Source: Acidobacteriota bacterium (GTDB taxonomy: Bacteria > Acidobacteriota > Vicinamibacteria > Fen-336). Taken from it: a stretch of DNA of 64,000 nt. Location: contig WYBL01000116.1 in the NCBI GenBank assembly GCA_011526565.1, forward strand, positions 3,019 to 67,018, written 5' to 3'. The position numbers and the translations under genes are program-made. Each line of letters begins with the position of its first letter. The stretch's first letter is position 1. Below the pieces are notes generated by a model. It saw nothing but the letters and a program-made list of their open reading frames with translations. It searched no databases and was not told the DNA's origin. Below are positions 43,538 through 58,252 of this stretch, one piece after another.

Positions 43538-43990
43538 TTGAAGCTCTCGTCCCAGGAGGAGTACGGCCTGCGCTGCCTGCTCCAGCTCGCCCGCGCGGGC
43601 GACGCCGCCAGCCTGACCATCGCGGAGCTGAGCAAGCGCGAGGGCCTGTCGGCCCCCAACGTCGCCAAGATGCTGCGCCTGCTGCGCCGCTCCGGCTTCG
43701 TGCGTGCCACCCGCGGCCAGCAGGGCGGCTACGCCCTCGCCCGCCCCGCGGCGACGATCAGCGTCGGCGAAGCCCTCTCCGCCCTCGGCGGCCGCATCTT
43801 CGACGAAGGCTTCTGCGACCGCCACGCGGGCGCCGAAGCCTCCTGCGCCCACCTCGACGGCTGCTCGATCAAGCCCGTCCTGCAGCGCCTCCAGGAAGTC
43901 GTCGACTCGGTCCTCGGCCACATGACCCTGTCCGAGCTGCTGAGCCCGCAGGCCCCCCTGATCCGTCTCCAGTCCCGAAGACCGGCCTGA
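43538..43990 (+). CDS. Rrf2-family transcriptional regulator (IscR-like, Cys-cluster)
   Basis: TTG start. wHTH LTIAELSKREGLSAPNVAKMLRLLRRSGFVRATRGQQGGYALARP, and a three-Cys cluster FCDRHAGAEASCAHLDGC. Confidence 0.85.
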   Translation: MKLSSQEEYGLRCLLQLARAGDAASLTIAELSKREGLSAPNVAKMLRLLRRSGFVRATRGQQGGYALARPAATISVGEALSALGGRIFDEGFCDRHAGAEASCAHLDGCSIKPVLQRLQEVVDSVLGHMTLSELLSPQAPLIRLQSRRPA

Positions 43991-44002: not shown

Positions 44003-44401
44003 TCAGCACCACTTGAAGAAGGGCACGATCGGGCCGCGCCGGGCACCGAGCCAGAACCCGCAGTCGACTTCCATCGACGCCACCTTCGCGTCTCGCAACT
44101 CGATCTCGGAGTGACCGGCGGCGTCCGCCAGGGCGCGAGCGAGACGCCCGAGCATCACGGCGCGGGACCGGACGTTGGCTCGGGCCTTCTTCCAGTCCTG
44201 GCCGATGGCGTGCTCGGCGAAGAAGAACGTCCTCGTGTAGTGCCCGATCCACCAGCCCCGGGCGTCGTCTCCGATAGGGAACGCCTGCTTGCTGCCCGGC
44301 TTCTTGCCGACGCCTCTGCCGACCATCGGTAGCACGTCGGCCTCGAAGCGCGCCTTCATGCGCTGGGTCTCGACGCTCGGGTCAATCGTGATCGTACCCA
44401 T
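44003..44401 (-). CDS. hypothetical protein (132 aa), last gene of the sigma/kinase operon
   Basis: Track ORF trimmed to ATG 44401, which has GGAGG 5 nt upstream. Sequence MGTITIDPSVETQRMKARFEADVLPMV..WWIGHYTRTFFFAEHAIGQDWKKA..PFFKWC. I recognise no family. Confidence 0.6.
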   Translation of the reverse strand: MGTITIDPSVETQRMKARFEADVLPMVGRGVGKKPGSKQAFPIGDDARGWWIGHYTRTFFFAEHAIGQDWKKARANVRSRAVMLGRLARALADAAGHSEIELRDAKVASMEVDCGFWLGARRGPIVPFFKWC

Positions 44402-44461
44402 ATCACCCTCCACGGTGGTCCTGTCCACAAGAACGGCAGCCCGGCGCGATACGAACGACGG

Positions 44462-47047
44462 TCAATGCCAGAGCGCCTTGGCGAAACCGCGGGCGTCCCT
44501 AACGGACCGCCGGCCCGGCACCGCGGCAAGAGCGCCCCGAAGAAGACTCGCGAGCCACTCCGGTGTGCGGCTGGCGTCCAGGCGTGCGGGAGAGCCCTGG
44601 CGGACCGTGCGCAGCGTGATCTCCTCGGTAGCCCCCTGGAATGGATGGCTCCCTGCAATCGCCTCGTAGATCACGACCGCCAGCGCCCAGACGTCCCACT
44701 CGGGCGAAGGCGCCACGCCCTCCCAGGCTTCCGGCGGAAGGTAGCGGGGAGTGCCTGCGACACAACCTTCCTGGTCCGCAGACAGCTCCATGAGGTGCGC
44801 GAGGCCGAAATCCAGGAGCTTGGGCGGGCCGGCAACCTGGAATCCGACATTCCCCGGCTTGATGTCACGGTGGAGCAGGCCCTCATCGTGGAGGTCGGCG
44901 AGCGTCGTGGCCAGGGCGCGGCCGAGGCTGAGGCTGGCTTCCAGACCCAGCGGGCCCCGCGTCAGGCGGTCCGCGAGCGTCTCGCCCGCGAGGTACTCCA
45001 CGACCAAGAACGGCACGCCCTTCCAGGTTTCTGCCCCGAACAGGGTCGCCACGCCGGGGTGGTTGATCGACGCCATCACGCGCGCCTCGGATCGCAGCCG
45101 TGCCGCCAGTGCCGGGGACGATCGCGGGAGCGTCTTCAGGGCCACGGTGCGCCCGAGAGTCGTGTCTTCTGCCTCGTAGACGACGCCCATGCCACCCTGA
45201 CCGACGCGCCGAACCAGCCGGAACTTGCCCAGCGCGATGCGCGGCAAGGCCGCCTGCCGACTTCGATCGGCGCCGCACTCGCAGCGCGGTTCGGAGTGAG
45301 CGCGAACTCGCGTGCAGGCGTCGCATTCCAGACCCGGCTCGTCGTCCCACTCCCCGCCCTCGGCGGCGCCCGGCTGCGGCACGCGAGCGATCGCGATTCC
45401 CGCAGCGGACGCGAGACTGTGAGCGAGTTCCTGCGCTCCGCGGTCCCAAGGCTCCTCGGACACGCGTTCGCCGAGGGCCAGGATGGCCGCCGGCTGTCCC
45501 GTGCTGCCCATCACGGGAACGACCAAGGTCACGCCGAGGTCGCTGCTCCATGCACGGTCGTCGTCAGGGAGCAAGGCCAGGAGGCGCGGTGTGATCTCCA
45601 GCGGGCGCGGGTCGGCGTCGAGCATCGCCACGATCGCGCTGCTCGCACTGAGTGGCCGGCAGGCGGAATCGCCCCCAGCGAACGTGCCGCTCGAGTTCCT
45701 CGTCAGAACGCGAACCTGGGTCGCCCCCAACGACATCCTCACCTCGCCTGTGAGGGCCGCCGCGACGTCGCGCTGACCCCGGGCCGCGCTCAGCGCGGTC
45801 AGCAGGCGTTGCAGCCCCGCGCCGCGGTCTCCATCGCCACGCGAGAACAGCCGATCGAGCCCGGCCTGGATCGGCCTGCGAAGCACCCGCAGGACTGTCG
45901 AGAGCGCGAGGGCCGCCAGCAGGCCCTTGCCCGGCCCCGCTCCGAGCAACTCGGCGAGCGGTCGATGGCGCTCGGCGAACAGGTATAGGGCCAACAGCAG
46001 GGCTGGCAGGAACACCAGCAAGTGAAGCGTCGTGCGGGCCAGTGCATGAGAGAGCGCACGCCGCGCCAGGAGGCGGAGGCCGAGGACGCGGCCCGCCGCT
46101 ACGGCTGCAGCGGTCGTCACGGGCAGCGACAGGAGGCCTCCATAGACGATGGTGTCCGTGGCGGCCTCGTACCGATCGACCCAGCGCTCCGCACCCGGCA
46201 CCAGGACCGAAACCAGCGTCAGGAGTACGAGCGGCGCTAGGCCGACGAAGACGGCCACGACGAAGCCGGCCACCCGACGCCCCTCGTCGCCGCTGGCAAG
46301 CCGCGCCTTGCGCAGGGCCAGACGAGCTCCGAGGGCCATGACCGAGAACTGCGCGGCCCAGAACAAGCGACCGCGGCCGTCACCGCCGTCGCGGCCGACG
46401 ACGATCAGCGCCTCACCCAGCGGGCTACCCGAGGCCAGCACTGCAACCGGGGTCACCAGGAAGAGGAACAGACCCAGGGCCGCTGCCGCCTTCTCCAACC
46501 GGACCAGCCCAACCTGTGCCGGCAGGTGGGCTGGCGCGGCGGGGAATCGCAGCAGGAGCGCGAGGAAGGTCGCCGCGAGGAATGCGTCGGGCTGCAGGCC
46601 CGCAAGGAGCGATACGCCGCTGGCCGCGCCCGAAGTGGCGGCGGCGATCGGCCTCGTGGCGAACGTCGCCGCCACGACGACGTAGAAGACGCCGAGACGG
46701 ATCGCGCGAGGGTCGCGGTCTCCGGAGTAGAGGAGCGCGGCACCGGAAAAGCCGAAAACCAGGAGTGGTCCGATGAGTCCGAAGTCCGAGTTCGCGATCG
46801 CCAGCCCGAGCCCTGACAAAGCGCGCGTCGCAGCGAGTAGGCAGAGCAGGCGGAACCCGAGGGACAACGGGTCCGAGACCGAGGCGCTCGCCACCCTGGC
46901 TCGCGCCCGGACGTTTTCGGCAACCGCCTCGAGTACGGTCGCGGTTCGCGACGGCAGCGCGACTCCGCGGTAGGCATCGCGCCAGTCCAGCGGTGCGCCA
47001 TCGGCCGCCGCCGCGGCGAGCCGCACGAGCGCGCCCTCAGGCTCCAT
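44462..47047 (-). CDS. Ser/Thr protein kinase with C-terminal kinase domain, N-terminal polytopic membrane region, GAF-like domain and Cys4 ribbon
   Basis: ATG 47047 (MEPEGALVRL) overlaps the sigma gene stop by 11 nt; the track start 47065 is a TTG. There are about 8-10 hydrophobic helices, then a Cys ribbon ECDACTRVRAHSEPRCECG. Kinase motifs: GQGGMGVVY, VALK, HRDIKPGN, DFGLA, GTPRYLPPE. Confidence 0.85.
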   Translation of the reverse strand: MEPEGALVRLAAAAADGAPLDWRDAYRGVALPSRTATVLEAVAENVRARARVASASVSDPLSLGFRLLCLLAATRALSGLGLAIANSDFGLIGPLLVFGFSGAALLYSGDRDPRAIRLGVFYVVVAATFATRPIAAATSGAASGVSLLAGLQPDAFLAATFLALLLRFPAAPAHLPAQVGLVRLEKAAAALGLFLFLVTPVAVLASGSPLGEALIVVGRDGGDGRGRLFWAAQFSVMALGARLALRKARLASGDEGRRVAGFVVAVFVGLAPLVLLTLVSVLVPGAERWVDRYEAATDTIVYGGLLSLPVTTAAAVAAGRVLGLRLLARRALSHALARTTLHLLVFLPALLLALYLFAERHRPLAELLGAGPGKGLLAALALSTVLRVLRRPIQAGLDRLFSRGDGDRGAGLQRLLTALSAARGQRDVAAALTGEVRMSLGATQVRVLTRNSSGTFAGGDSACRPLSASSAIVAMLDADPRPLEITPRLLALLPDDDRAWSSDLGVTLVVPVMGSTGQPAAILALGERVSEEPWDRGAQELAHSLASAAGIAIARVPQPGAAEGGEWDDEPGLECDACTRVRAHSEPRCECGADRSRQAALPRIALGKFRLVRRVGQGGMGVVYEAEDTTLGRTVALKTLPRSSPALAARLRSEARVMASINHPGVATLFGAETWKGVPFLVVEYLAGETLADRLTRGPLGLEASLSLGRALATTLADLHDEGLLHRDIKPGNVGFQVAGPPKLLDFGLAHLMELSADQEGCVAGTPRYLPPEAWEGVAPSPEWDVWALAVVIYEAIAGSHPFQGATEEITLRTVRQGSPARLDASRTPEWLASLLRGALAAVPGRRSVRDARGFAKALWH

Positions 47048-47636
47048 CGCCCATCGCCTTCGCAAGCTTGGCGAGCGCGCGCGCCACGACCATCCGGGCC
47101 GAGTCCGAAGAGGGCTTGCCCAGTGCCAGCGCGATCTGCTCGTAGCTGTATCCCATCTCGACCCGGGCGACGACCGCCTGCTGCTCGGGAGCCGGCAACT
47201 CGGCCAGGGCGGCCTGGTAGCGGCCCCGAAGTTCGGCGTCGGCGAAGAGGGAGTCCGGCCCTGGCTCCCGGCTCGCCATCTCGTCGCCGATCTCGTCGAC
47301 AGGCGGCCGGCGCGCGGCCCGACGGACGTGGTCGCGAACCCGGTTGACGACGGCCGTGCGGAGGTACGCCCCCAGCGCGCCGCGTCGGCGCGCGTCGAAG
47401 CGATCGAGATTCCGGACGGCCCCGATCAGCGTCTCCTGGACGATGTCTGCGGTGTCGCCCAGCGCGCGCGCCCACCCCGGCAGCCGCCCGCGGGCGAACC
47501 GGAGCAGCCCGGGCATCTCCCGCTCCAGCAGCCGCTCGAGGGCGGAGCGATTCCCGCGCCGCGCCAGGCTGAGCAGGCGCACGGTGGTCGGGGCCGGGGA
47601 GAGAGGGGCCTCGGTCAAGGGATCACGACTCCGCAC
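47037..47636 (-). CDS. ECF-type RNA polymerase sigma factor
   Basis: Region 2 (ALERLLEREMPGLLRFARGRL..DTADIVQETLIGAVRNLDRFD) and region 4 (LPAPEQQAVVARVEMGYSYEQIALALGKPSSDSARMVVARALAKL). The start is uncertain: GTG 47636 is preferred and ATG 47717 is the track option. Confidence 0.8.
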   Translation of the reverse strand: MRSRDPLTEAPLSPAPTTVRLLSLARRGNRSALERLLEREMPGLLRFARGRLPGWARALGDTADIVQETLIGAVRNLDRFDARRRGALGAYLRTAVVNRVRDHVRRAARRPPVDEIGDEMASREPGPDSLFADAELRGRYQAALAELPAPEQQAVVARVEMGYSYEQIALALGKPSSDSARMVVARALAKLAKAMGDGA

Positions 47637-47689
47637 AGTGACTTCCCAGATTCTGACGACGGAGTGTACATGCACCCGGCGTGCTGTTC

Positions 47690-47726
47690 GGAACTCCGGT
47701 GAGGGACGTTGTTCCATTCAAGTTCC
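47690..47726. promoter_or_regulatory. GGAAC / GTTCC motif cluster in the divergent sigma-operon intergenic region (ECF-type -35 candidates)
   Basis: GGAAC at 47690-47694 (+). GTTCC at 47711-47715 and 47722-47726, which read GGAAC on the minus strand. A CGT element lies between them. The spacing to CGTC-like -10 elements is only 12-13 nt, shorter than the usual 16-17. Confidence 0.25.
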
Positions 47727-47756
47727 CCGTTCGCGCCGTGGACAAGGAGGCGTGCC

Positions 47757-48809
47757 ATGCCGACCGTCAGTTGGCTCACGAAGATCACGGACTTCGTCAA
47801 CCTCGGGAAGATCCTGGTCGACGCGGGTCCCGGCTTCATTCTGGCCCTGGCGCTCTACGTCGGCCTTGGGACGGCCCTCAACCTCCCCCTCATTCCTGTG
47901 CACGGCCATGACGCGGTCGAGAGCCGCCTTGCCGGCGAGCTCGAGAAGCGGAGGCAGGAGGAGGAGGGGCTCGAAGGCCAGGCCCTGCACGCCGAGCAGG
48001 GCCGGGAGGCCGCAGCCGCGGCGGTGAGCGGGGCCGAGGCAGCGCTGACTCGCGCGAAAGCGTCGCCCCTGGGGGGAAAGGCCGAGAGGCGGCTCGTGGT
48101 CGAGCTCCAACGGCTGCAGGGAGACCTGAGGGAGAAGCAACGTAGCGCGAAGGCCGCCGAGCGGAAGCTGCGACAGGGCAGCGAAGCCGTCGCTGAAGCC
48201 AAGGCGGCCCTCGCCGACGCGAAGAAGGCACAGGTGACGAGCGTCGCCGATCTGCTCTCGAGGGTGCTCGAGCACCTGGTCGCACTCGGCCTCGTGGGCT
48301 ACGTTCTCGGCACCCTGCTCAGCCCCGTCAATCGTTGGGTCTTTCTCGACACGATGGGGTCCGATCCCGCCAGCAACGGACTCGATGGCCGACCCTCTTC
48401 CTACTTCGTCGGAAAGGGGGTGGTGTCGCAGACCGAACTCGATGGCCTGGTGACTTCCTACTACCGGTTCGCCGAAGCGAGCGCCAACATGATCCTCCCG
48501 ATCCTGGCGCTTGCCCTCGCGGTCGGCATCGAACGCCGGAGTTCGGTGGCTTCGACTCCCTGGACCTCAGGCGCCGCGGCGCTGCTCGTCTTGGCGTTCG
48601 TTGTGTTCCTGGCCGTCACAGGCCGGCGCCGCTACCGCGACTACAAGACCCGCGTCCACTCGTTCATCACGGGGCGGCTCGAGAAGGTCCAGGCGGCGGA
48701 CGACGATCGCCGGCAGGGGCTGGAGAAGGCCAGGACGCTCGAACAGGTCGTCAAGCTCGCCGAGGAGCTGCTCAAGAAGACGGCCAAGCCCGGGAGCCCA
48801 ACCGCGTGA
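47757..48809 (+). CDS. membrane protein with central coiled coil, unknown function
   Basis: ATG 47757 with AAGGAGG (47744-47750) upstream. Four hydrophobic helices flank an Ala/Glu/Lys/Arg-rich coiled coil of about 100 aa (RLAGELEKRRQEEEGLEGQ..AEAKAALADAKKAQ). Confidence 0.7.
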   Translation: MPTVSWLTKITDFVNLGKILVDAGPGFILALALYVGLGTALNLPLIPVHGHDAVESRLAGELEKRRQEEEGLEGQALHAEQGREAAAAAVSGAEAALTRAKASPLGGKAERRLVVELQRLQGDLREKQRSAKAAERKLRQGSEAVAEAKAALADAKKAQVTSVADLLSRVLEHLVALGLVGYVLGTLLSPVNRWVFLDTMGSDPASNGLDGRPSSYFVGKGVVSQTELDGLVTSYYRFAEASANMILPILALALAVGIERRSSVASTPWTSGAAALLVLAFVVFLAVTGRRRYRDYKTRVHSFITGRLEKVQAADDDRRQGLEKARTLEQVVKLAEELLKKTAKPGSPTA

Positions 48810-49837
48810 TTCTCCTGTTCACCCTGGCGCAGCGCCTTCGACAGCGGTACGGCGAGGCCCACTGGGACCGCCTGCGGGCCTCGTTGGTCGACCTCGCCGA
48901 CGCCTACACCCTGACTCACGGGGCCGCAGCGCTGTGCCTGCCCGACGAGTTCTGGCCTCCAGGCTCGGACGCCAACGCCGTCGAGCTGATCCGTTCCGAG
49001 CTGGAGGCGCGGGCCCCGATCGAAGCGCTCGTGATCATCGGCGGCGACTCCGTAGTCCCGTTCGGGAGGGCGCCCAATCCCGTCGCCGATCGCGTCGCCG
49101 ATCCTGATTCCCTGGTCCTCAGCGACGCGGTCTACGGATCACCGTGGAGTCTTGCAGGAGCCCGCGTGCCCGTGGCGAGAATCCCCGACAGCGACCCGCC
49201 AGAACTGGGTGAACTGCTGTCGCTCCTCGAGGCGGCCCGGCCGGATTCCCGTGGCTCGTCTCGACGGGGCGCATTCGCGGTCGCGAATCCGGAGTGGGAA
49301 GCAGCGACCTGGAGGGCGCTCAAGGGTCACCGGCCGACCGTGCGAGTCGCTCCCCACTGGCACGGCGGTGATCCGGAGTGGCCATCCAACGACGCCGCCC
49401 TCCTCTACTTCAACCTCCACGGGTTCGCTCGACGACCCGAGTGGTTCGGATTCCACGACCGCAGCGGATGGACTCCCGTGCTGCGGCCCGGGAACATCCA
49501 ACGCGAGGCGGTCGCGGGCGCGATCGTCTTCGTGGAGAACTGCTACGGCGGCAACACCGTCGGCCGGTCACGACGCTCCAGCATCTCGCTGGCCCTGCTC
49601 GCCTGTGGCGCGCGGGCGATCATCGCCACCGCAGGCCTGGCGTTCGGAAGCCACCTGCCTTCCATGGAGCACAACGCCGACGCGCTGGCCAGCGCGACAC
49701 TCTCCGCCCTTTCCACTGGCGCCTCGGTTGGCGCAGCGCTGGACCGGGCGCGGCAAGCTCTGCCGGGCGACGACGCGTTCGCAGCCAAGACCCGATCCCA
49801 ATTCCTGATCTTCGGCGATCCCCTCGCCACCCTCTGA
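48806..49837 (+). CDS. clan CD cysteine-peptidase-like protein (gingipain C25 / caspase-like His-Cys dyad), no signal peptide
   Basis: GTG 48806 overlaps the upstream TGA (GTGA). Contains EALVIIGGDSVVPF, SDAVYG..VPVARIP, the His motif LLYFNLHGF, and the Cys motif AIVFVENCYGG after a hydrophobic strand. This order is typical of clan CD. The call is by eye only. Confidence 0.6.
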   Translation: MILLFTLAQRLRQRYGEAHWDRLRASLVDLADAYTLTHGAAALCLPDEFWPPGSDANAVELIRSELEARAPIEALVIIGGDSVVPFGRAPNPVADRVADPDSLVLSDAVYGSPWSLAGARVPVARIPDSDPPELGELLSLLEAARPDSRGSSRRGAFAVANPEWEAATWRALKGHRPTVRVAPHWHGGDPEWPSNDAALLYFNLHGFARRPEWFGFHDRSGWTPVLRPGNIQREAVAGAIVFVENCYGGNTVGRSRRSSISLALLACGARAIIATAGLAFGSHLPSMEHNADALASATLSALSTGASVGAALDRARQALPGDDAFAAKTRSQFLIFGDPLATL

Positions 49838-49850
49838 TCGGAGACTCGCG

Positions 49851-51707
49851 ATGAGACTGGAATACGTGCTCGCCCTGACCCTCGGAGTCGCTCCGGGCGC
49901 CGCAGCCGAGTCCAACGACCGAAAGGCAAGCCAGTACGTCGTCTTCGACGCTCGGTCCGGCGGCAAGGGGCTTCACCGGTGTGTCGGCAGCCCGGGTGCG
50001 GACTGCCGCGCGCCGAAGACCGACTTCTTCGACAGCCAGGACATCGTCCTGTTCCAGCTCGTCGGCGCTCCCTGCAACACCCGATGGACGTTTCAGCTCG
50101 GCGACGTGGCCGTCCCGGAACCCGAGCCGGGGATACGCGGCCTGGGCGACATGCCATCGCTGGCCAAGGCTCTTGCCGGACCGCCACCGGCGCACGGTTC
50201 TGATGCTCCAGCAGCGCAAGCGGCCGACTCGTGGTCCATCGAAGACATCCTCGGTCGGCTCGTCTCCCGGGAAGGGATCCAGGGCCTCCGGCTCGACATC
50301 GAGGGAGAGAAAGCCAGGCTCGAATCTGAGATCAGGAACCTGGCTGCCGCCGTCGCCGCGTACGAGTACGACGTCCGCATCTTCCTCGCCGACGCCGCGG
50401 TCGAGAACGCGGTTGCCGCGGTTCGCGCGGTCGAGGATGCGGCCGGCAAGCCTCCTGCGGCGGGATGCTCCGGCGCGTACCAGTTGCGCGAAGCTGCGGA
50501 GATGGCCGAGGCGGAACTCTCCCGTGTGGAGGCAAACATCACAACCTCAGGCTTGGGGAGCAAGGCCAGCACTCTGCGGGAGCGGCTGCGCGTGCTCGGA
50601 GCCGAGATTGGCCTTCACGCAGCCCGGGTGGACAGGGCACGCGCCGCGGTCGAGATCGCCCGCTCGGGCCTTGGCTGGGAATGCGAAGCCGCGCCGCAGA
50701 CCACGTCGGCCACCGAATGCGACGCTCCTGTCGAGGTGGGCCTGGAACGCTTGAAGCGAGCGGTGGCCGCCTACGGTGCGACCGCTACGGGCGAGGCTCT
50801 GCGCCGGATATACGACCACTACGAGACGGAGAGGCCTCGCGTCCGATACGCCCTTATGCAAGACCTCGCCGAGCTCGGGGTCGCGCTTTCGAGCACGGCC
50901 GTCGATGGCCAGTTGGGCGCGCAGCGGGATAGCGTTCGTCGCTCCTCGGCATCGCTCGAGACGTGGGGGGCTGGGGCCGACGACCGCCTCCGCGACATGC
51001 GGAAGGCGCTCCGACGCCACTTCGCCGATTCCACCTACGCCTCGACCGTCGACGTGCGCCCTCGATTCACGGGGAACACCGTCCTGAGTCTCAAGGTGCG
51101 GCGCCAGGTATTCGATCCGCTCGCGCCGCCGGCCACCGAGCCTCCCGCCGCCGTCGAAGTGGCGAGTGCATCCTACGAGGTGCACAAGCGGTACCTCTTC
51201 AACGTCGGCGGCGGATTCATGATCAGCGGCATCGGGAACAGGGAATACGCCGTCCGGCAGTATCGACGCCTGGATGCCGACGGGCAGCCCGTCTCCGACG
51301 ACGACGGACCAATCTTCGACAAGAAGCTCGTCGAGTCGGGCTCGGATGACCGGTCGCAGGATTTCGCCCTGACCTTCACCGCCTACCTTCCGCGCCGTCT
51401 CGACACTTTCCACGCGTCGGCGGCGCGCCGACCCACGACTGGGTTGATGGTGGGCTTCTCACTCGAGAAGCCCACGGACAACCTGTACGCGGGCCTCGTT
51501 CTTCAGCCGACCCTGGGCATCCAACTGACGGCCGGGGTTCACTTCGGAAAGCGCTCGGCCCCACAGGATGGCATCGTCCCCGAGGTCACCGTGCTCCCGG
51601 CCGACACGACAGCGCCGCCGATACGAGACGAGTGGGCGAGGGCGCTCTTCTTCAGTATCGGGTTCGACGCCAGCGTGTTCTCGCGGTTGTTCGGGTCGTC
51701 CGAGTAG
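49851..51707 (+). CDS. secreted protein of unknown function (618 aa)
   Basis: Signal-like MRLEYVLALTLGVAPGAAAE, a long helical middle, and a C-terminal third with alternating beta-like segments (GLMVGFSLEK, AGLVLQPTLGIQLTAGVHFG, ALFFSIGFDASVF). Confidence 0.65.
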   Translation: MRLEYVLALTLGVAPGAAAESNDRKASQYVVFDARSGGKGLHRCVGSPGADCRAPKTDFFDSQDIVLFQLVGAPCNTRWTFQLGDVAVPEPEPGIRGLGDMPSLAKALAGPPPAHGSDAPAAQAADSWSIEDILGRLVSREGIQGLRLDIEGEKARLESEIRNLAAAVAAYEYDVRIFLADAAVENAVAAVRAVEDAAGKPPAAGCSGAYQLREAAEMAEAELSRVEANITTSGLGSKASTLRERLRVLGAEIGLHAARVDRARAAVEIARSGLGWECEAAPQTTSATECDAPVEVGLERLKRAVAAYGATATGEALRRIYDHYETERPRVRYALMQDLAELGVALSSTAVDGQLGAQRDSVRRSSASLETWGAGADDRLRDMRKALRRHFADSTYASTVDVRPRFTGNTVLSLKVRRQVFDPLAPPATEPPAAVEVASASYEVHKRYLFNVGGGFMISGIGNREYAVRQYRRLDADGQPVSDDDGPIFDKKLVESGSDDRSQDFALTFTAYLPRRLDTFHASAARRPTTGLMVGFSLEKPTDNLYAGLVLQPTLGIQLTAGVHFGKRSAPQDGIVPEVTVLPADTTAPPIRDEWARALFFSIGFDASVFSRLFGSSE

Positions 51708-51808
51708 TCGGGGGGCGAGAATCACCTGGGGTGTCAACGTCGGGCGAGCGCGCACGAGACCTGGGCAAGGAGGGACAGGCGCGGGTTCGGGCTGGGAGCG
51801 GATCCTGG

Positions 51809-52585
51809 TCAGCGAGCGGGTGCGGGAGGCTCTGCGAAGATCGCGGCGACGAGGTCGAGGCGGCCCGCTTTCCACTTGGCAAAGAGCCAGTTGACCTCCG
51901 GGGCGAGGCTGGCCGCGGCGATGCGTTCCTGGAGGGGCCCCAGCGCTGCGCGAAGGCCGAGCGTGGCTTCGCCGGCCAGGATCTGGAGCTGGGGCCTTCC
52001 TCGCTCCTGCTTGACCGCGGCCACCAGGAAGCCGTCGCCGAGTTCTTTCGGGACTTGCACCTTGGCCGCGCGCAGCAAGGGACCCTGCGGTGGTGCGCCT
52101 GGGTCGCCCGGGCACAGGGTCAGCTTCAGGTCGTGGTCGGCGGGGAGTTCGAGTTCCTTGGGGCTGAGGCCGCGCAGGCTCGACTCGGCGCTTGCGACCA
52201 CCGCCACCGCGCCGCTGCCGCTCGGCCGGTACACCACCCGCCAGTGCGGTGCTGTCCCGCTCCCGTCCTCGTGGGTGGAGACCGCGGTGGAGGCTGACTG
52301 ACCCGCGATCCAACCCGGGTTGTATCCGCAGTCGAGCGAGCCCGACCAGGTGCCGACGCCCGGCTCGCGCCAGCAGACGAAGTGGCCCTGGAACTCGCCG
52401 CACGAGCCACTCGTGCACCACAGGTTCCCGTCGCACCAGGCCTCGACCTGGGCGCAGGGCCACGGCGGCAACCAGCGCTGGCACTCGACCACGCAGTGAT
52501 CGGCGGCCGCGGGCGCGGTCGCCGAGACCAACGTCAGCGTGAGGAAGAGGTCCGTGATTCGAAGCCTTCTTCTCATGCTTCTCAT
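51809..52585 (-). CDS. secreted Cys-rich protein of unknown function
   Basis: ATG 52585 overlaps the upstream stop (ATGA). Signal peptide MRSMRRRLRITDLFLTLTLVSATAPAAA. The N-terminal domain has 10 Cys (DHCVVECQRWLPPWPCAQVEAWCDGNLWCTSGSCGEFQGHFVCW..LDCG). Confidence 0.65.
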   Translation of the reverse strand: MRSMRRRLRITDLFLTLTLVSATAPAAADHCVVECQRWLPPWPCAQVEAWCDGNLWCTSGSCGEFQGHFVCWREPGVGTWSGSLDCGYNPGWIAGQSASTAVSTHEDGSGTAPHWRVVYRPSGSGAVAVVASAESSLRGLSPKELELPADHDLKLTLCPGDPGAPPQGPLLRAAKVQVPKELGDGFLVAAVKQERGRPQLQILAGEATLGLRAALGPLQERIAAASLAPEVNWLFAKWKAGRLDLVAAIFAEPPAPAR

Positions 52586-52977
52586 CCCTGCCGCCCGCGC
52601 GTGACCACCTCGACCGTGCCGCCGGGCCGCAGGATCAGCTCGATCCGCGCCGCATCCGAGACTTGAAGCACCTGAGTCCACCGCTCCGCCCTCCCGTCGT
52701 TCGACCAACTCACCGTCGCCTGCACGACGCCGGCGTGCGCCCGCACCCGGAGCCTCGGCCCCGTGCCCGTCTCGTGCCCGAGCAACTCGGCCCGCACGCA
52801 CGCCGCATCCACCCTCAGCGTGACGCCAGACGCAGCCCCCGGCCCGCCATTCACGACCTCGACGAGCACTCTGTCGCCGAGGAGGCGGGCGCCGAGCCGC
52901 GGCGCGGCGGCGAGCCCCGCCCCGACCACTGCGAGCGAAGCGACGGCCGCCCAGCGCAACGCCAGGTGGCCACTCAT
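52582..52977 (-). CDS. small signal-anchored protein of unknown function
   Basis: ATG 52977 overlaps the upstream TGA (ATGA). Sequence MSGHLALRWAAVASLAVVGAGLAAAP, then a beta-rich region of about 100 aa. The 89 upstream codons of the track ORF are Arg/Pro junk. Confidence 0.6.
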   Translation of the reverse strand: MSGHLALRWAAVASLAVVGAGLAAAPRLGARLLGDRVLVEVVNGGPGAASGVTLRVDAACVRAELLGHETGTGPRLRVRAHAGVVQATVSWSNDGRAERWTQVLQVSDAARIELILRPGGTVEVVTRGRQG

Positions 52978-54338
52978 GGCTTCTGGTAGCCGTAGAGCTC
53001 GCGTCGAGCGCCGGCAACCGGGGACATCCAGTCGTCGATCGGGAGACCGGGGAGCGGGCGGCCCCAGAGGTCGCCCCACCTCGCGCCTCGGAGGAAGCTG
53101 ATCGTCCAGCGCTGGACGAGATTCATCAGCGGGAGCGCGGCGTGCAGGGTCATGCCCTTGCGGAACGGGAGGTTCTCGCCGACTCCGAGGAACCCGCCGA
53201 AGTCGCGCTCCGCGACGCCGACCACGGAATCCCGGTCCGCCCACTCAGGAACCGCCCCGTGCAACGGCACGGTACCGTCGCCGAGGTTGTCGCGCCAGGC
53301 GTCGACGTCGGCCGGGGCCCCGTCTTCGCCGCGGTACTCCTGCGACTCCACGTCGAACGCGAAGCGGCCGTCGGCCGCCAGCTTCACACGATGCGCCGTG
53401 CGCTCGTCCAGGCCCACGATCAGCAGCCACTGGCCCGGCTCGGCGAGGGCCGCGCTCGGGTCCTCCTCGTTGACGCTCGCGAGGAAGCTGCGCCCGTCTT
53501 CGAGGCGCTCGCGGAGGTACTTCCACGCGGACTTCATGCGCTGCTCGGCGTTGGAGTTCCTGGGGTCGGTGCTGTGCGTCCGGATGAAGTCGGCGACCGA
53601 CTCGACGATGCTCTCCTGCCAGTTCTTCGCGTTGAAGATCGCCTTCCCCGAGTGCCCCGCCAGCGCTCCTTCGAAGTACGGCAACAGGTGGTAGATCGCG
53701 GGCGTCATGCGGGCCGCCAGGCGCTCGCTGTGCTGCGGCGAGCCGACCATCGAGCCTTCGCCCGTGGCCAGCTTGATCACCGCGTCGACCGCTCCCTGGA
53801 AGGGCGTTCCGATCGTCACCACGCGTCGAACCAGCGGCTTGCCGTTCGGGCCCTTGCAACCCTTGGCGAGAGCCGATGCGATCACCAGACCGCCCATCGA
53901 GTGGCCCACGAGGTCGACCGTCGTCGCCTTCTCTTTCGCGTAGCTCTTCAGGAGGTTGGTGCGGTCGATCACCTCGCGCACGAACTCGCAGAGCTGGTCC
54001 GCCACGACGCGGTTGTCGGCGCGCCAGTCGTAGGCGAACGGGAAGACGGGCACGACTGCCGTCGGCCCGCGATCTTCGCGCAGCGCCGATCGCAGCTCGC
54101 GGATGAACTCCGCGTAGCCCATCTCCGCCGCGTGCGAGGGGACGATCTTCGCCGGCTCCACCGCCTCGAAGCGCAGGTCGTCCGGGTGCATCGCGATGCG
54201 GTGGAACTCCTTGATCGGCCGCCAGCGCAGCGCCTCGATCCCGGGGTCCCAGACGACCTCGGGCGTGGTGGGATAGACGTCGCGGAGCACGGACCCCGTG
54301 ATCCCGTGGACGACGATCACCGGTGGCTGCACCTTCAT
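52974..54338 (-). CDS. alpha/beta hydrolase, LCAT/PGAP1-like lipase/esterase, no signal peptide
   Basis: ATG 54338 with GGAGGG 8 nt upstream. Oxyanion-loop start VIVVHGITGS, nucleophile elbow LVGHSMGG, and Asp region LGDGTVPLHG. Confidence 0.75.
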   Translation of the reverse strand: MKVQPPVIVVHGITGSVLRDVYPTTPEVVWDPGIEALRWRPIKEFHRIAMHPDDLRFEAVEPAKIVPSHAAEMGYAEFIRELRSALREDRGPTAVVPVFPFAYDWRADNRVVADQLCEFVREVIDRTNLLKSYAKEKATTVDLVGHSMGGLVIASALAKGCKGPNGKPLVRRVVTIGTPFQGAVDAVIKLATGEGSMVGSPQHSERLAARMTPAIYHLLPYFEGALAGHSGKAIFNAKNWQESIVESVADFIRTHSTDPRNSNAEQRMKSAWKYLRERLEDGRSFLASVNEEDPSAALAEPGQWLLIVGLDERTAHRVKLAADGRFAFDVESQEYRGEDGAPADVDAWRDNLGDGTVPLHGAVPEWADRDSVVGVAERDFGGFLGVGENLPFRKGMTLHAALPLMNLVQRWTISFLRGARWGDLWGRPLPGLPIDDWMSPVAGARRELYGYQKP

Positions 54339-54444
54339 TGCCAGGCCCTCCAGACTCGCTCGTTCATAAAGTATACATAAAGCACACACGGAACGCTCGA
54401 TGGATCGGCTTTGAGCCCCGCGCGAAGGCTCGAGCCTCGGCCCT

Positions 54445-56760
54445 TCAGGGGCGGCGCAGGGTCTCCAACGGGGCTTGCCGTGACGCGGCGACTGCCGGTG
54501 CCAGCGAGGCGGCGGCGGCGCACAGAAGGGTGAACGCCGCCGATGCGGTCAGCGTCGTGAGTTCGAACGACGCCCACTGGAAATGAGCCGACTCGGCCCA
54601 CTGGCCCAGCCACACCGAGACGAGGGTTCCGATCCCGATGCCTGCCATGGCCAGCGTCGCCCCCTCGGCCGCCATCAGGATCGTCAACTCGCGGGGCCCT
54701 GCTCCGACGACGGCCCGGACCGCCATCTCGAAGCGGCGCATCGCGGCGAGGGAGTACACGACGGCAGAGACGCCGACGAGCGCCGCCCCAAGGCCGACGA
54801 GGGCGTACGTGCCGAGCAGTCGCACCTGCGCCAGGAGCGGCGCCTGTGCTCGGGCGACGAGATCCCCGGCGAACACCAGGCCATGGACCGAGGGGCTCTT
54901 CGCCGTCCCGCTGACGGCGTGGATCTGCCGAGCGGCCTCGCCGCAATCGTGGCAGCGCACCAGCAACCACTCCTCGTCGGGGTGGCGACCGCGGGCCGGC
55001 CGACTGCGCGGCAGGTAGCACTGGGGCAGGGGTTCCTGGGCAGCATCGATGCCTCGTACCGGTGCGACGACGCCGATGACCTCGCGCAGGGCCAGTTCGC
55101 CCTCGATGCGGATCTGACGACCCACGGCCGCGACAGCCTGCCCTGGCCGCCGCCCCTCGTCGGCGAACGCCAGGATCAGTACGTCCGCGTCTCCCGGCGC
55201 GAAAGCCCGCCCGGCGAGCAGCCGGATCCCGGTCGCGGCCAGGAAGTCGCCCTCCACGTGCCAGACCTGACAGAGGACCCTCCCGGCCTCCCCGTCGATC
55301 CACACGCCCCCTGCTGACGCGACACCTGGAGGCGCAGACGCGGTCGCCGCGGCCGACACTCCGGGAAGTTGCGCGACCTCGGCCATCAGGGCCTGAGGCG
55401 AGGCGCCCAGGCGCCCGAGCAGCAGGTTCTTCGATTCGTAGCCCAGAGGAATCTCGAGTGCTGCTCTCAGGGTCCATGCGGAGACCAGCGCGCCGTTGAG
55501 CAAGACGACCGCGATGACCGTCTGACTGATCACCAGGAGGCGGCGCGTCCACCGCACCTGCCCTGTGGACGCTCCCCCGCCGTCCCGCAGGCCTTCCGAC
55601 GGAGCCGCGCGCAATGCAACGGCCATCGCGCCGGCGGATGCGAGGAGGACGCTCGGGAACGCCAGACCGAGAGCCGCCCCGCTCGCGACGGCGACGAGAC
55701 GCTCGAGCGGCGGCTGGTGGACCCACCAGGCCGCGAATATCTCGCGTCCGCCGACGATCGAGAGGGAGGCGACCAGCGCCCCCACGACGCCCACTCCGAG
55801 GGCGAGGGAGAACGTCTCGCTGCCGAGCTGCAGCAGGAGGTTTCGCCGCGTCGCGCCGAGAGCCTGCCGCACGGCGAACTCGACGCGGCGCACCGACATC
55901 CGACCCAGCAAGAGAGTGCCCAGGCTCGCGACGGCGGTACCCAGGAGCAAGCCCGAGAGCGCCAGGAGCAGCAGCGCGGGCGCTATCACTCTCTCGCGCG
56001 CCACGTCCACCATCGGCCGGACGAACACGCGCTCGCCGAAGCGCACCCCGGTGCTGCGCGTGTAGAGGGCGTGCAGGCCGTGCAGCAAGCCCCCCAGTTG
56101 CGAACGCGCCGACTCGATGCTGGTCTCGGGCCGCAGGCGCCCGACCCAGCCGTCGCGTCGCACCAGGCCGAACGGATCGTCGTTGCCTCGGGCCCGCCCT
56201 CCTGCACGCGTGCGTGGCGTCCAGATCTCGGTGCCTCCCGGGAAGTCGAAGCCCGCCGGGGCGACACCGACGACGCGGTGAAGGGTGCCTTCCAGCAGGA
56301 TCTGCGCCCCGAGCACGGCCGCCCCGGGACCGAAGTGCCGGTCGCGGAAGGCGGCGCCCACAACGGCCACAGGTTCGTTCGATCGATCCTCCTCGACGCT
56401 GAATGCGCGCCCCGGCAAAGGAACGACCCCGAACACGCTGAAGAAGGCGGCGGAGACAGCGGTGGTCCTGACCTCTCTACGGTGGCCGTCCAGTCGGACC
56501 TCGACGAGTCCGGTCTCGTAGGTCGCCAACGCCGCGAGGCTTCGCGCCTGCCCCCAGTACTCGACGGGGTCCCCGACGAGAGGGTGCGCCATGTTCCCGA
56601 GATGCACGATGCGGTCCGCCGCGGGCACCCCGAGCGGGCGCAGGACCAAGGCATCGACGGCGGCCACCATCGCGCTCGCCACGCCGAGGACGACCCCGAG
56701 GGCGATGGCGACGACGGCCGTACCGCGATGGCGAAGGGCGAGCCGGGCATCGAGGCGCAC
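54445..56760 (-). CDS. duplicated FtsX/MacB-type ABC permease (ADOP family-like), no cognate ATPase nearby
   Basis: GTG start. It has two FtsX 4-TM modules, each preceded by a large periplasmic MacB_PCD-like domain. The N-terminus RLALRHRGTAVVAIALGVVLGVASAMVAAVDALVLRPLG fits the acidobacterial duplicated orphan permease pattern. Confidence 0.8.
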   Translation of the reverse strand: MRLDARLALRHRGTAVVAIALGVVLGVASAMVAAVDALVLRPLGVPAADRIVHLGNMAHPLVGDPVEYWGQARSLAALATYETGLVEVRLDGHRREVRTTAVSAAFFSVFGVVPLPGRAFSVEEDRSNEPVAVVGAAFRDRHFGPGAAVLGAQILLEGTLHRVVGVAPAGFDFPGGTEIWTPRTRAGGRARGNDDPFGLVRRDGWVGRLRPETSIESARSQLGGLLHGLHALYTRSTGVRFGERVFVRPMVDVARERVIAPALLLLALSGLLLGTAVASLGTLLLGRMSVRRVEFAVRQALGATRRNLLLQLGSETFSLALGVGVVGALVASLSIVGGREIFAAWWVHQPPLERLVAVASGAALGLAFPSVLLASAGAMAVALRAAPSEGLRDGGGASTGQVRWTRRLLVISQTVIAVVLLNGALVSAWTLRAALEIPLGYESKNLLLGRLGASPQALMAEVAQLPGVSAAATASAPPGVASAGGVWIDGEAGRVLCQVWHVEGDFLAATGIRLLAGRAFAPGDADVLILAFADEGRRPGQAVAAVGRQIRIEGELALREVIGVVAPVRGIDAAQEPLPQCYLPRSRPARGRHPDEEWLLVRCHDCGEAARQIHAVSGTAKSPSVHGLVFAGDLVARAQAPLLAQVRLLGTYALVGLGAALVGVSAVVYSLAAMRRFEMAVRAVVGAGPRELTILMAAEGATLAMAGIGIGTLVSVWLGQWAESAHFQWASFELTTLTASAAFTLLCAAAASLAPAVAASRQAPLETLRRP

Positions 56761-56787
56761 GGGAGATGGTAGCGGCCCAGTGCGGCC

Positions 56788-57015
56788 CTATGAACGAGGC
56801 GCCGGCTCCCAACGCCCGGCACGGCAGACGAGGATGCTGCTCTGGCCCCTGATCAGAGCACCCTCGGAATACGTGGCCCCCTCGAACGTGCATCCGGCGG
56901 GCTTGGCGGCAGGCAGCCCTGGCGACTGGTCGGAAGCCCTCCAGAGGGCGAGGGCAGCCAACAGACTGACGATGCCCAGGACCCCGATCGCCAGACGGAC
57001 GTGCGGCTGCTTCAC
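56788..57015 (-). CDS. small anchored protein with 2-Cys ecto-motif
   Basis: GTG 57015 lies 3 nt after the upstream stop, with GGAGG 8 nt upstream. Sequence KQPHVRLAIGVLGIVSLLAALALW, then CTFEGATYSEGALIRGQSSILVCRAGRWEP. Confidence 0.6.
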   Translation of the reverse strand: MKQPHVRLAIGVLGIVSLLAALALWRASDQSPGLPAAKPAGCTFEGATYSEGALIRGQSSILVCRAGRWEPAPRS

Positions 57016-57018
57016 AGT

Positions 57019-57618
57019 TCACCCCTCCTGTTCGACGCCATCCTCACGTTGCAGCCCCGGCAGACGAACTCCGAAATAGGCCTCCACTTCGCCCTGCAGC
57101 GCACCCGAGAGAGCACCGCCCCATATCTTCTCGACTCGTCCATCGGCGCTGACCACGATGAGGGTCGGCGTGGCCGCGAGCCCGAACTCCTGCGCGGTCG
57201 GACGTTCGAGACCGACAACTTCGAACCCCAGCAGTGTTTCCTCTGCTGTCACCTTCTCGCGGGACGCGCTCAAGGAAAGCCCTTTGAACTGATATCGCCC
57301 CGTGCTAGCGGCGGCCAGGACGCGGATGTTCGCGAGATTGCGACGGCACCAGACGCACTCCTCGGACTGCACGTAGAGAACACTCGGCAGGGCGCCTCCC
57401 AGCGTGAGCGGTTGTCCCCGTCCGTGGCGATCGGTTACCGGGATCTCCGGAACTTGCCTGCCGACACTCAGGGCCTTGGGAGGTCGACCCCGGTCATCAG
57501 GTGGTTGCCTGAGCTTGAGGCCGAGACCCACATTCGCGGCAAGGGAGGCGCCCAAGGCGATGAGCAACAGCGCCACGGCCAGATTGCTGTCGAGAAGCCG
57601 ATCCATGCAGGCTCGCAT
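57019..57618 (-). CDS. membrane-anchored thioredoxin-fold thiol:disulfide oxidoreductase (TlpA/redoxin-like, CVWC)
   Basis: ATG 57618 with AAAGGAGG upstream. TM anchor LAVALLLIALGASLAANVGLGL, then SVLYVQSEECVWCRRN (CxxC), and ATPTLIVVSADGRV (cis-Pro region). Confidence 0.75.
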   Translation of the reverse strand: MRACMDRLLDSNLAVALLLIALGASLAANVGLGLKLRQPPDDRGRPPKALSVGRQVPEIPVTDRHGRGQPLTLGGALPSVLYVQSEECVWCRRNLANIRVLAAASTGRYQFKGLSLSASREKVTAEETLLGFEVVGLERPTAQEFGLAATPTLIVVSADGRVEKIWGGALSGALQGEVEAYFGVRLPGLQREDGVEQEG

Positions 57619-57654
57619 GGTGGCACCTCCTTTCCGGGGGCTGACGGGTGGCGT

Positions 57655-57682
57655 ACTCCGGCCAGCTGGCGCTGGCCGGAGT
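57655..57682 (-). terminator. perfect 12-bp stem / 4-nt loop hairpin between the peptide gene and the thioredoxin-fold gene (attenuator or mRNA-stabiliser candidate)
   Basis: ACTCCGGCCAGC tggc GCTGGCCGGAGT, read directly. It ends 8 nt downstream of the peptide stop codon (57691-57693). No U-tract follows on the minus strand. Confidence 0.55.
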
Positions 57683-57690
57683 ACAGGTTG

Positions 57691-57957: not shown

Positions 57958-57979
57958 CGTTCACTCCCTCTGGCGGGCT

Positions 57980-58252
57980 CACCCGCTGGGCCAAGTGTAT
58001 ACCAAGGGGCCGCTTTTCGACACCCTCTAGTCGATCATGAGCCGCGGCACTGACGGGTGCCCGCGAGTCACGCCGGGTAAGGGTCCGGCGGCGGAGTGAA
58101 TCCGCCGGCGGATTCTCTGGCGTCTGGGCGGGAGGACTTGGGCCCGCCCTCCCACCCGCTGACAGTCTCCACCCCCAAGCCCCCGGGCGCACGCCACGTG
58201 GTCCCTGCGCCGGCGGGGTGTTGTCCACGGGCACAACCACCCGGCTGACAGT
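57980..58252. repeat. three copies of CACCCG(G)CTG in the 304-bp intergenic region upstream of the peptide gene
   Basis: CACCCGCTG at 57980-57988 and 58153-58161, the latter extended to CACCCGCTGACAGT. CACCCGGCTGACAGT at 58238-58252. The spacings are 173 and 85 bp. The region also holds GC-rich hairpins at 58089-58107 and about 58216-58243. Confidence 0.5.

Follow-up and report, generated by a model that had tools for sequence, protein, structure and literature searches.

The cassette described here lies at positions 44003 to 51707 of the window, by which we mean the whole 64,000-nucleotide stretch of DNA analyzed, from an uncultured MAG of a soil-type acidobacterium (Vicinamibacteria, Acidobacteriota). 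It is formed by six genes in two divergent operons, all of them present in the sequence and in the gene calls on the strands, and with the identities, that a first-pass annotation had given them. The minus strand encodes a 193-aa ECF sigma factor (47037-47618), an 861-aa Hanks-type Ser/Thr kinase (44462-47047; Pkinase, 128 bits) and, as the last gene of that operon, a 132-aa cytoplasmic ORFan (44003-44401). Across a 138-bp control region (47619-47756), the plus strand encodes a 350-aa inner-membrane coiled-coil protein (47757-48809), a 343-aa predicted cytoplasmic cysteine peptidase of the gingipain fold (clan CD, C25-like; 48806-49837) and a 618-aa predicted exported protein (49851-51707). 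All six open reading frames are full length in a second lineage, with dN/dS ratios of 0.2 to 0.3 (0.7 in the small ORFan), so they can be considered real genes that, judging from these ratios, are under purifying selection.

No anti-sigma factor could be recognized, in agreement with the earlier annotation: neither Pfam nor NCBIfam detected an anti-sigma domain in any of the six proteins. Searches against Pfam, NCBIfam, PADLOC, PHROGs and PDB sequences found nothing for the four nonregulatory proteins; a PHROG tape-measure protein match (E value of 0.003) and several PDB PPR matches were disregarded as low-complexity helical sequence. There were no Rfam matches at the locus. This high-GC region also yielded neither sigma-70-type promoters nor plausible intrinsic terminators; the single terminator-like match falls inside the 350-aa gene, and the number of matches is below the chance expectation.

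The scores of the sigma factor exceed the cutoffs of Pfam Sigma70_r2 (46.9 bits), Pfam r4_2 (33 bits) and TIGR02937 (76 bits, with a cutoff of 42.9). With the sigma2 and sigma4 domains only, in 193 aa, it belongs to the ECF (group 4) sigma-70 factors, and it does not come close to the cutoffs of the nearest NCBIfam subfamilies (ShbA, 74.5 versus 209; TIGR02984, 68 versus 184). Its start had been placed at 47636, a position that we rejected because the relative carries a 1-nt indel between 47636 and 47618; the gene callers agree on a TTG at 47618, which enlarges the control region from the roughly 120 bp first proposed to 138 bp. Region 2.2 reads G-D-T-A-D-I-V-Q-E (DTADIVQE at 47433-47456), so that the DxxDxxQE core-binding motif is intact. 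The sigma factor had been tentatively described as ECF43 type, a group defined by the loss of the acidic DxxD in region 2.2, with the consensus QTTA (PMC13147305, PMC8999054). Two features of that group were indeed found, an adjacent Hanks kinase gene and no detectable anti-sigma domain, but the intact DxxDxxQE lacks the defining one, and we have abandoned this classification.

The pairing of sigma factors with kinases is, as had been noted, known for some ECF groups, and those linked to a kinase and devoid of an anti-sigma factor, as is the case here, include ECF43, ECF59-62, ECF217, ECF267 and ECF283 (PMC7826278, PMC8999054). The most similar arrangements are those of EcfP/PknT from Vibrio parahaemolyticus and EcfK/PknS from Xanthomonas citri, both ECF43, in which the sigma factor adjoins and is cotranscribed with a membrane-bound Hanks kinase and for which direct phosphorylation of EcfP and EcfK has been shown (PMC13147305). 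Genes targeted by the characterized examples are adjacent or nearby, as with EcfK and its T6SS. However, these proteins have an uncharged QTTA or STTA that needs phosphorylation, in contrast to the DTADIVQE found here, and the "missing negative charge" mechanism of ECF43 is thus not expected at this locus. The completeness of the core-binding motif counts against control by the kinase, as the reason for needing one is not evident.

There is an overlap of 11 nt between the start of the kinase gene and the end of the sigma gene (ATG at 47047, stop at 47037-47039), and the 132-aa ORFan has the strong Shine-Dalgarno (SD) sequence attributed to it, a GGAGG located 5 nt before its ATG. Sigma factor, kinase and small ORFan are cotranscribed and probably also coupled in translation. 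The catalytic motifs of the kinase (GQGGMG, VALK, HRDIKPGN, DFG and PPE) are intact and kept in the divergent allele of the second lineage, but the order of its domains is reversed. From the N terminus, there are about 10 hydrophobic transmembrane (TM) segments found by hydropathy scan, presumed to be the sensor (aa 62 to 392; 45872-46864), a GAF-like domain (aa 478 to 553; 45389-45616), a four-Cys motif (Cys575/578/589/591, CxxC-N10-CxC; 45275-45325) that might be a zinc ribbon, and a C-terminal kinase domain (aa 610 to 847; 44507-45220; Pfam PF00069, E value of 4.6e-37). This differs from the PknB/PknS-type receptor kinases, with their N-terminal kinase, single TM segment and C-terminal extracytoplasmic sensor; PknS itself, with an N-terminal kinase, one TM segment and a periplasmic TPR domain (PMC13147305), has the opposite order. 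The GAF-like assignment is borderline, with 19 to 21 bits for Pfam GAF, GAF_2 and GAF_3 (the GAF cutoff is 22.4), while the two divergent alleles share all four Cys residues. The membrane region (aa 62 to 392) matched no Pfam family, and it is here that the kinase differs most between lineages. The 132-aa ORFan evolves fast, with 40% identity to its counterpart, although the C-terminal FFKWC is conserved; no match was found for it in Pfam, NCBIfam, PADLOC or PHROG.

On the plus strand, the first gene is preceded by an AAGGAGG SD sequence (47744-47750), and its product is the 4-TM coiled-coil protein expected from the first reading, with a charged helical stretch set between hydrophobic segments, four in all. 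Hydropathy gives the order TM1, a coiled coil of about 115 aa, TM2, a conserved loop, TM3-TM4 and a basic, helical C-terminal tail, with no family match. Conservation between lineages is concentrated in the N-terminal 40 aa (98% identity) and the loop at aa 200 to 240 (90%), the coiled coil being variable. At the end of the operon, the 618-aa protein has the secreted character and beta-rich C terminus described for it: a signal-peptide-like N terminus, a small Cys-containing domain, a helical bundle (approximately aa 130 to 390) and a strand-rich C-terminal domain. The AF2 model, built from a 3-sequence alignment, has an overall pLDDT of 46, and only the helical middle is confident. Only two homologue clusters of this ORFan were found among 5.8 billion clusters; between lineages, its N- and C-terminal domains are 82 to 92% conserved and its middle 52 to 75%.

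The peptidase gene is coupled to the membrane protein gene by a GTGA, its GTG start overlapping the upstream TGA. The gingipain/caspase-like order of motifs (IIGGDSVVPF, ARIP, NLHGF and VENCYGG) is present in the 343-aa protein, and its assignment to clan CD proved right, as it has the caspase-hemoglobinase fold. A putative catalytic dyad is also present: H205 (49418-49420), G206 and C246 (49541-49543) are invariant in 77 sequences, with LLYFNLH205G following a strand at residues 199 to 203 and IVFVENC246 following another at 240 to 243. Asp95, Asp101 and Asp107, invariant too, are candidates for the S1 pocket residue. No match to PF01364 was obtained for the protein even at an E value of ≤10, but relatives of about 30% identity reach 31 to 46 bits with this model (cutoff of 23). 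The best structural match was gingipain and not CHAT, with Craspase/Csx29 and SAVED-CHAT as other structural neighbors. Compared with the gingipains RgpB and Kgp of Porphyromonas gingivalis (MEROPS C25, clan CD), the order of the His-Gly and the Cys is kept and their positions are almost equal, each coming after a hydrophobic beta-strand, although sequence identity is only 12 to 15% and the hosts are a member of the Bacteroidota and an acidobacterium, respectively. The protein consists of the catalytic domain only, which starts at residue 2 in the alignments. Of the other parts of gingipains (signal peptide, prodomain, Ig-like domain and T9SS C-terminal domain) none is present, and for this reason the protein is predicted to be cytoplasmic. 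On sequence and modeled fold, we thus consider it a cytoplasmic gingipain-fold cysteine peptidase with its predicted His-Cys dyad intact.

The closest relatives outside the two lineages are TPR-C25 proteins of Chloroflexi (Anaerolineales) of about 850 to 1050 aa, with about 30% identity over the 343 aa. YFNLHG, E-x-CYG and FGDPL are invariant, and these proteins are also predicted to be cytoplasmic, but they are longer at both ends, with a TPR region at the N terminus and about 150 additional aa at the C terminus. We considered whether the N-terminal 350 to 450 aa of the long Chloroflexi homologues could be a fused 4-TM protein and discarded it, as they are TPR repeats.

A kinase-controlled ECF sigma factor beside a clan CD protease module had been noted as not known to be a described regulon. 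Sigma-kinase pairs are already known, and for the association of an ECF sigma factor with a clan CD domain there is a precedent in DdvS/DdvA of Myxococcus xanthus, an ECF sigma factor and a transmembrane anti-sigma factor with a TPR-CHAT domain (PMC11506125). In DdvA, a periplasmic clan CD domain whose active site is incomplete is joined to a zinc anti-sigma domain (PMC11506125), whereas the peptidase here is a separate, divergently encoded and predicted cytoplasmic protein with an intact dyad, and the partner of the sigma factor is a kinase. By analogy with DdvA, the plus-strand operon might act upstream of the sigma factor, with the membrane protein and the peptidase replacing the anti-sigma and regulated-proteolysis machinery. 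The lack of an anti-sigma factor beside a sigma factor with a fully competent core-binding motif would fit such a role, and so would the mechanism proposed for DdvA, which involves clan CD autoproteolysis (PMC11506125). However, no anti-sigma domain was found in the membrane protein, whose N-terminal cytoplasmic segment has only 18 aa; the peptidase stands apart as a cytoplasmic protein that resembles gingipains rather than TPR-CHAT proteins and is not cotranscribed with the sigma gene; and the gene actually coupled to the latter is the kinase; we regard this possibility as very unlikely.

The cassette was found in only two related Vicinamibacteria lineages, intact in both but with different flanks: in the second, an RCC1 protein replaces Suf/Rrf2 on the left, and the right flank has an insertion of Pnkp/Hen1. 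The co-conservation of the divergent operons that had been anticipated therefore holds insofar as they are kept together in the only other lineage, with no copies beyond these two close relatives in the databases searched. Scans of GTDB species representatives found no relative of the peptidase or of the sigma factor, and in JGI metagenomes the kinase retrieved only generic kinases of about 30% identity. Divergence is uneven along the cassette. The sigma factor is 95% identical between the lineages (the first 110 aa are identical; dS of 0.15), the three plus-strand genes have dS values of 0.45 to 0.66, and the kinase is only 62% identical, with a dS of 0.97. The breakpoint coincides exactly with the sigma/kinase junction, nucleotide identity being 89 to 97% in the sigma gene and 56 to 65% in the kinase gene. 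The kinase and the 132-aa ORFan codiverge (dS of 0.8 to 1.0), which, together with the breakpoint, suggests an allele replacement. GC3 is 0.81 to 0.90 in the cassette, whereas the core genes on its left have 0.94 to 0.99, which marks a compositional boundary. ORFans abound in the region.

Such a pattern brings to mind a conflict module directed against phages or competitors, in which a fast-diversifying membrane sensor kinase would detect the attack and the sigma factor would switch on a caspase/gingipain-like protease effector with membrane and exported partners. The very narrow distribution, the GC3 boundary in an ORFan-rich setting and the sigma/kinase breakpoint with its codiverging ORFan are in line with this scenario. 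Besides, clan CD proteases are effectors or activators in several defense systems, among them the Craspase/Csx29 and SAVED-CHAT proteins that are structural neighbors of the peptidase, and a CHAT-domain ECF sigma/anti-sigma pair controls a CBASS-CRISPR island (PMC11506125). Nevertheless, PADLOC matched only the kinase, with generic kinase-domain models (PD-T4-6, Mad6 and PglW), and none of the other five proteins; there were no PHROG matches of substance; and the cassette contains no nuclease, NTPase, toxin or mobile-element genes. The dN/dS values of 0.2 to 0.3 correspond to ordinary purifying selection, and the peptidase resembles gingipain more than CHAT, which leaves a defensive function improbable in our opinion.

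Alignment of the control region with the second lineage revealed several conserved blocks: GATTCTG (47649-47655), GAGTGTACATG (47662-47672), CTGTTCGGAAC (47684-47694), a GGAAC-N12-CGTT pattern on the plus strand (47690-47710) and the AAGGAGG SD sequence. The GGAAC-N12-CGTT pattern is located 46 nt upstream of the membrane protein start in both lineages. A single match to it was found in the window, where 0.35 would be expected by chance, and at least one match appeared in 29 of 100 shuffles, so that the pattern is not significant by itself. Classical ECF promoters have a spacing longer than 12 nt. When a shared ECF-type motif was sought upstream of both operons, none was found before the sigma gene itself, and the positionally conserved GGAAC...CGT pattern is on the plus-strand side only. 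The conserved blocks are also partly palindromic (TGTACA and GTTCNGAAC) and might just as well serve as operators of a dimeric regulator.

From just two features, the divergent arrangement and the conserved GGAAC-N12-CGTT block, we infer that the sigma factor may regulate the protease operon. The operons might instead be mere neighbors, the sigma-kinase pair controlling genes elsewhere or only itself and the plus-strand operon being an independent accessory module. The distant peptidase homologues speak for this, as those of Chloroflexi and of a Rhizobium plasmid, where the gene sits among unrelated ones, have other contexts and are never adjoined by a sigma or kinase gene; the same is suggested by the unequal dS values across the cassette and by a promoter motif devoid of statistical support. 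On the other hand, the six genes move as a block between different flanks, and a short control region with conserved sequence is shared by the two operons. Regulation of adjacent or divergent genes is common among ECF sigma factors, and neighborhood conservation has been used for that reason (PMC7826278). An independent coexistence of the two operons seems to us rather unlikely.

We tentatively favor, as plausible though still short of probable, a lineage-restricted cassette that joins signaling to output, in which the kinase controls the sigma factor and the sigma factor drives the divergent peptidase operon. The kinase would sense a membrane or envelope cue and act on the sigma factor by phosphorylation, as in other kinase-linked ECF groups without an anti-sigma factor, with Thr56 in DTAD and Ser116/Ser123 in the linker as candidate sites; once active, the sigma factor would use the conserved CTGTTCGGAAC...CGTT block to transcribe the divergent operon. 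The peptidase could then act on the cytoplasmic side of the membrane, attached to the conserved cytoplasmic loop or tail of the membrane protein to which it is translationally coupled, with the exported 618-aa protein as an extracytoplasmic partner. An extended version, to which we give little probability, is an envelope-to-cytoplasm signaling and proteolysis system in which the kinase gates the sigma factor otherwise than by the ECF43 charge switch (e.g., through a phosphorylated linker or with the codiverging ORFan as an inhibitor), the sigma factor induces a membrane-tethered protease and its exported partner, and the kinase-ORFan half is exchanged by recombination. If that half is exchanged between lineages, a diversifying pressure from phages, predators or competitors would be implied.

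Although the class of kinase-linked ECF sigma factors is large, only ECF43 members have been dissected, and how kinases control the groups that keep the acidic core-binding motif has yet to be explained in the field (PMC8999054). This locus is a compact example, with a kinase of unusual, reversed architecture. It also gives a physiological handle on a widespread and uncharacterized family, that of the cytoplasmic gingipain-fold proteins, for which it would be the first regulatory context if the sigma factor does drive the operon. The family comprises about 2,300 representative clusters, mostly from Chloroflexi, where the TPR-C25 gene has neither the 4-TM and 618-aa proteins nor a sigma factor or kinase nearby and follows the genes of a protein of about 108 aa and a TPR giant of about 1780 aa, in a conserved operon next to rplY.

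All six genes that the first-pass annotation described for the cassette were found, together with the strong Shine-Dalgarno sequences of the 132-aa ORFan (44003-44401, minus strand) and of the 350-aa membrane protein gene (47757-48809, plus strand), the 11-nt overlap between the kinase ATG (47047) and the sigma stop codon (47037-47039), and the GTG start of the 343-aa gene (48806-49837, plus strand) overlapping the TGA of the preceding gene. The sigma factor start was moved from 47636 to a TTG at 47618 (193 aa), on which gene callers agree, because a relative has a 1-nt indel between the two positions; the control region is thus 138 bp long (47619-47756) instead of about 120 bp. Exact matches to the region were located on metagenome contigs, and NCBI lists the proteins under a Vicinamibacteria bacterium MAG (MCL4820282-85), either as "sigma-70 family RNA polymerase sigma factor" or as "hypothetical protein."

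A Suf Fe-S assembly operon with an Rrf2 regulator as its last gene (43538-43990) lies upstream of the cassette, and genes for a Cys-rich 255-aa protein, a 131-aa protein, an LCAT-like hydrolase and a MacB-type permease are found downstream, convergent with it. The first three form an apparent minus-strand operon (51809-54338), in which the 255-aa protein has a signal peptide and the hydrolase is of the LCAT/PGAP1-like alpha/beta type; the permease comes next, and the gene group is conserved in both of the related Vicinamibacteria lineages in which the cassette was found. The G+C content of the window is ~72%, and the cassette sits on a compositional boundary, with GC3 of 0.81 to 0.90 versus 0.94 to 0.99 in the core genes to its left. 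The step is located at ~44000, and GC3 in the genes to its right (44003-64000) is 0.71 to 0.92. Most of these have no Pfam domain, and the region may be accessory or variable.

The sigma factor (47037-47618, minus strand) matched Pfam regions 2 and 4_2 and scored above the cutoff of the ECF superfamily model, while its best scores against NCBIfam subfamily HMMs were far under the cutoffs and even the closest ECF sigma of solved structure was only distantly related. Pairing of sigma factors with kinases, as mentioned in the first-pass annotation, is known for ECF43, ECF59-62, ECF217, ECF267 and ECF283, which have no anti-sigma factor (PMC7826278); likewise, a domain search of the six cassette proteins detected none. 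The suggestion of an ECF43-type factor did not hold. In ECF43, the acidic DxxD of region 2.2 has given way to QTTA or STTA, and the sigma factor regains its affinity for the beta' subunit once the Thr is phosphorylated (PMC8999054, PMC13147305). Here, region 2.2 reads GDTADIVQE, a complete DxxDxxQE, so that the hallmark of ECF43 is missing and the protein should not need phosphorylation to bind core RNA polymerase. It resembles in this those other kinase-linked ECF groups in which the acidic motif is retained (PMC8999054). The 861-aa partner (44462-47047, minus strand) is a bona fide Hanks kinase (Pkinase, 128 bits), with Gly loop, VALK, HRDIKPGN, DFG and PPE all intact. Its catalytic domain is C-terminal, following ~10 hydrophobic segments (aa 62 to 392), a borderline GAF domain (aa ~478 to 553; 19 to 21 bits) and a conserved CxxC-N10-CxC motif, a domain order that is the reverse of that in the usual bacterial receptor kinase.

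The 343-aa protein had no direct Pfam match, and its few detectable relatives gave weak Peptidase_C25 matches; when 1.84 billion representatives were searched with a profile, 2,299 relatives were recovered, the top ones nearly all of 850 to 1,050 aa, with an N-terminal TPR region, and mostly from Chloroflexi/Anaerolineales. All the peptide motifs quoted in the first-pass annotation were present, and the gingipain/caspase-like assignment made from their order was borne out. AlphaFold2 produced a confident model from a 77-sequence alignment (pLDDT 85.8, pTM 0.89), for which Foldseek ranked gingipain R first (E value 4e-11, TMq 0.69), followed by Kgp, Csx29/TPR-CHAT, separase and SAVED-CHAT. The expected His/Cys dyad was aligned: His205, Gly206 and Cys246 are invariant in the alignment, and in the model His205 and Cys246 each come directly after a hydrophobic strand, as is typical of clan CD. 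Since the protein consists of the catalytic domain only, has no signal peptide and shows homology from residue 2 on, it is predicted to be a cytoplasmic stand-alone gingipain-fold enzyme.

Some relatives were found in other settings. On two Chloroflexi contigs (L018, 1273-9571; L019, 1306-9733), the TPR-C25 family (~2,300 representative clusters) occurs in a conserved operon encoding a ~108-aa protein, a ~1,780-aa TPR giant and the TPR-C25 protein, adjoining the ribosomal protein L25 gene; this Anaerolineales operon looks like a cytoplasmic gingipain-fold system. A 522-aa protein from Rhizobium sp. CB3171 plasmid pCB3171_5 (L026, 7980-9548) aligns with the whole peptidase (28% identity, E value 2e-20) and keeps FFNCHG and ECCYGG, among ferritin-like, radical-SAM and halogenase genes. 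The family therefore extends to plasmids of Alphaproteobacteria.

The 350-aa protein has four transmembrane segments, and RRRYRDYK after the fourth would place its ~115-aa coiled coil in the periplasm by the positive-inside rule; conservation between the two lineages centers on its N-terminus, its C-terminal tail and the loop at aa 200 to 240. In the tentative main reading given below, the peptidase would form a complex with this translationally coupled partner and work on the inner side of the membrane. The 618-aa protein (49851-51707, plus strand) has, as had been noted, a signal-like N-terminus and a strand-rich C-terminal domain of ~220 aa, with alternating hydrophobic patterns; its model is confidently helical in the middle and overall too poor (pLDDT 46) to classify that domain. 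Database searches with these two proteins and the ORFan gave no homologue outside the two lineages and no family or PDB match.

In the second lineage, the six genes are in the same order (peptidase identity of 82%), while the left neighbor is an RCC1-repeat protein instead of Suf/Rrf2. The cassette thus behaves as a unit. On contig L005 of that lineage, a Pnkp/Hen1 RNA-repair pair absent from the window lies between the 618-aa and 255-aa genes (9565-13589). No further copies were found in GTDB species representatives or JGI metagenomes. Co-conservation of the divergent operons, which the first-pass annotation proposed to check, thus stands at the shallow depth of two lineages and does not extend to the distant peptidase homologues, whose gene contexts are unrelated. 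Divergence between the lineages is markedly uneven: amino acid identity is 96% in the LCAT-like gene and 95% in sigma, lies at 77 to 82% in the three plus-strand genes, and falls to 62% in the kinase and 40% in the ORFan, with dS values of 0.10 to 0.15 (LCAT/sigma), 0.45 to 0.66 (plus-strand genes) and 0.83 to 0.97 (ORFan/kinase), and dN/dS of 0.2 to 0.3 (ORFan, 0.7). Nucleotide identity is 89-97% on the sigma side (47059-47656) and 56-65% over the kinase and ORFan (44003-47047), with the break placed exactly at the sigma/kinase junction (47037-47060), and dS rises from 0.15 (sigma) to 0.97 (kinase). As relaxed protein constraint does not explain the raised dS, this pattern suggests that the kinase-ORFan sensory half was swapped for a divergent allele, with sigma kept constant. 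Such a signature, together with the rarity and composition of the cassette and the fact that defense systems often employ clan-CD proteases, would fit a conflict or defense role, which we regard as unlikely; no defense-specific protein model was matched by PADLOC.

The blocks of the control region conserved between the lineages are GATTCTG, GAGTGTACATG (47662-47672), CTGTTCGGAAC (47684-47694), a CGTT 12 nt beyond CTGTTCGGAAC, and the Shine-Dalgarno sequence. The resulting GGAAC-N12-CGTT, oriented toward the plus-strand operon and 46 nt upstream of its start codon, resembles ECF -35/-10 elements but has short spacing. With this spacing, a chance expectation of 0.35 in the window and the two palindromic blocks, it is a candidate promoter and nothing more. 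The two best-conserved intergenic blocks (47662-47672 and 47684-47694) contain the palindromes TGTACA and GTTCNGAAC, which may serve as operator sites of a dimeric regulator instead of being recognized by sigma. Rfam gave no match, and neither a sigma-70-type promoter nor a plausible intrinsic terminator could be detected.

The best-supported reading, which we hold tentatively, is a kinase-linked ECF signaling pair with the divergent operon as its most likely output. Its main rival, that the two operons are simply neighbors, seems rather doubtful. By analogy with DdvA (PMC11506125), the plus-strand genes might instead act upstream of sigma, a poorly supported and quite improbable reading. Sigma-kinase pairs, clan-CD folds and an ECF/clan-CD association have precedents; new is the combination of an acidic-motif ECF sigma and a polytopic GAF kinase of reversed architecture beside an operon for a stand-alone cytoplasmic gingipain-fold peptidase, and searching the literature turned up no account of a module of this kind.

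Elsewhere in the window, a minus-strand run of ORFans (56788-61302) encodes two small Cys-rich secreted peptides (75 and 88 aa), a thioredoxin-like protein with CVWC (199 aa), a 150-aa membrane coiled-coil protein, a 372-aa protein with CxxC…CxxC and a C-terminal transmembrane segment, and a 350-aa unknown; the members tested had no Pfam match. Cyclic-nucleotide-binding domains occur in three large proteins (15655-18879, 26750-28609 and 34752-37514), namely, a HEAT-repeat protein, a patatin/NTE-like phospholipase and a TPR protein, which points to heavy cNMP signaling in this genome segment.
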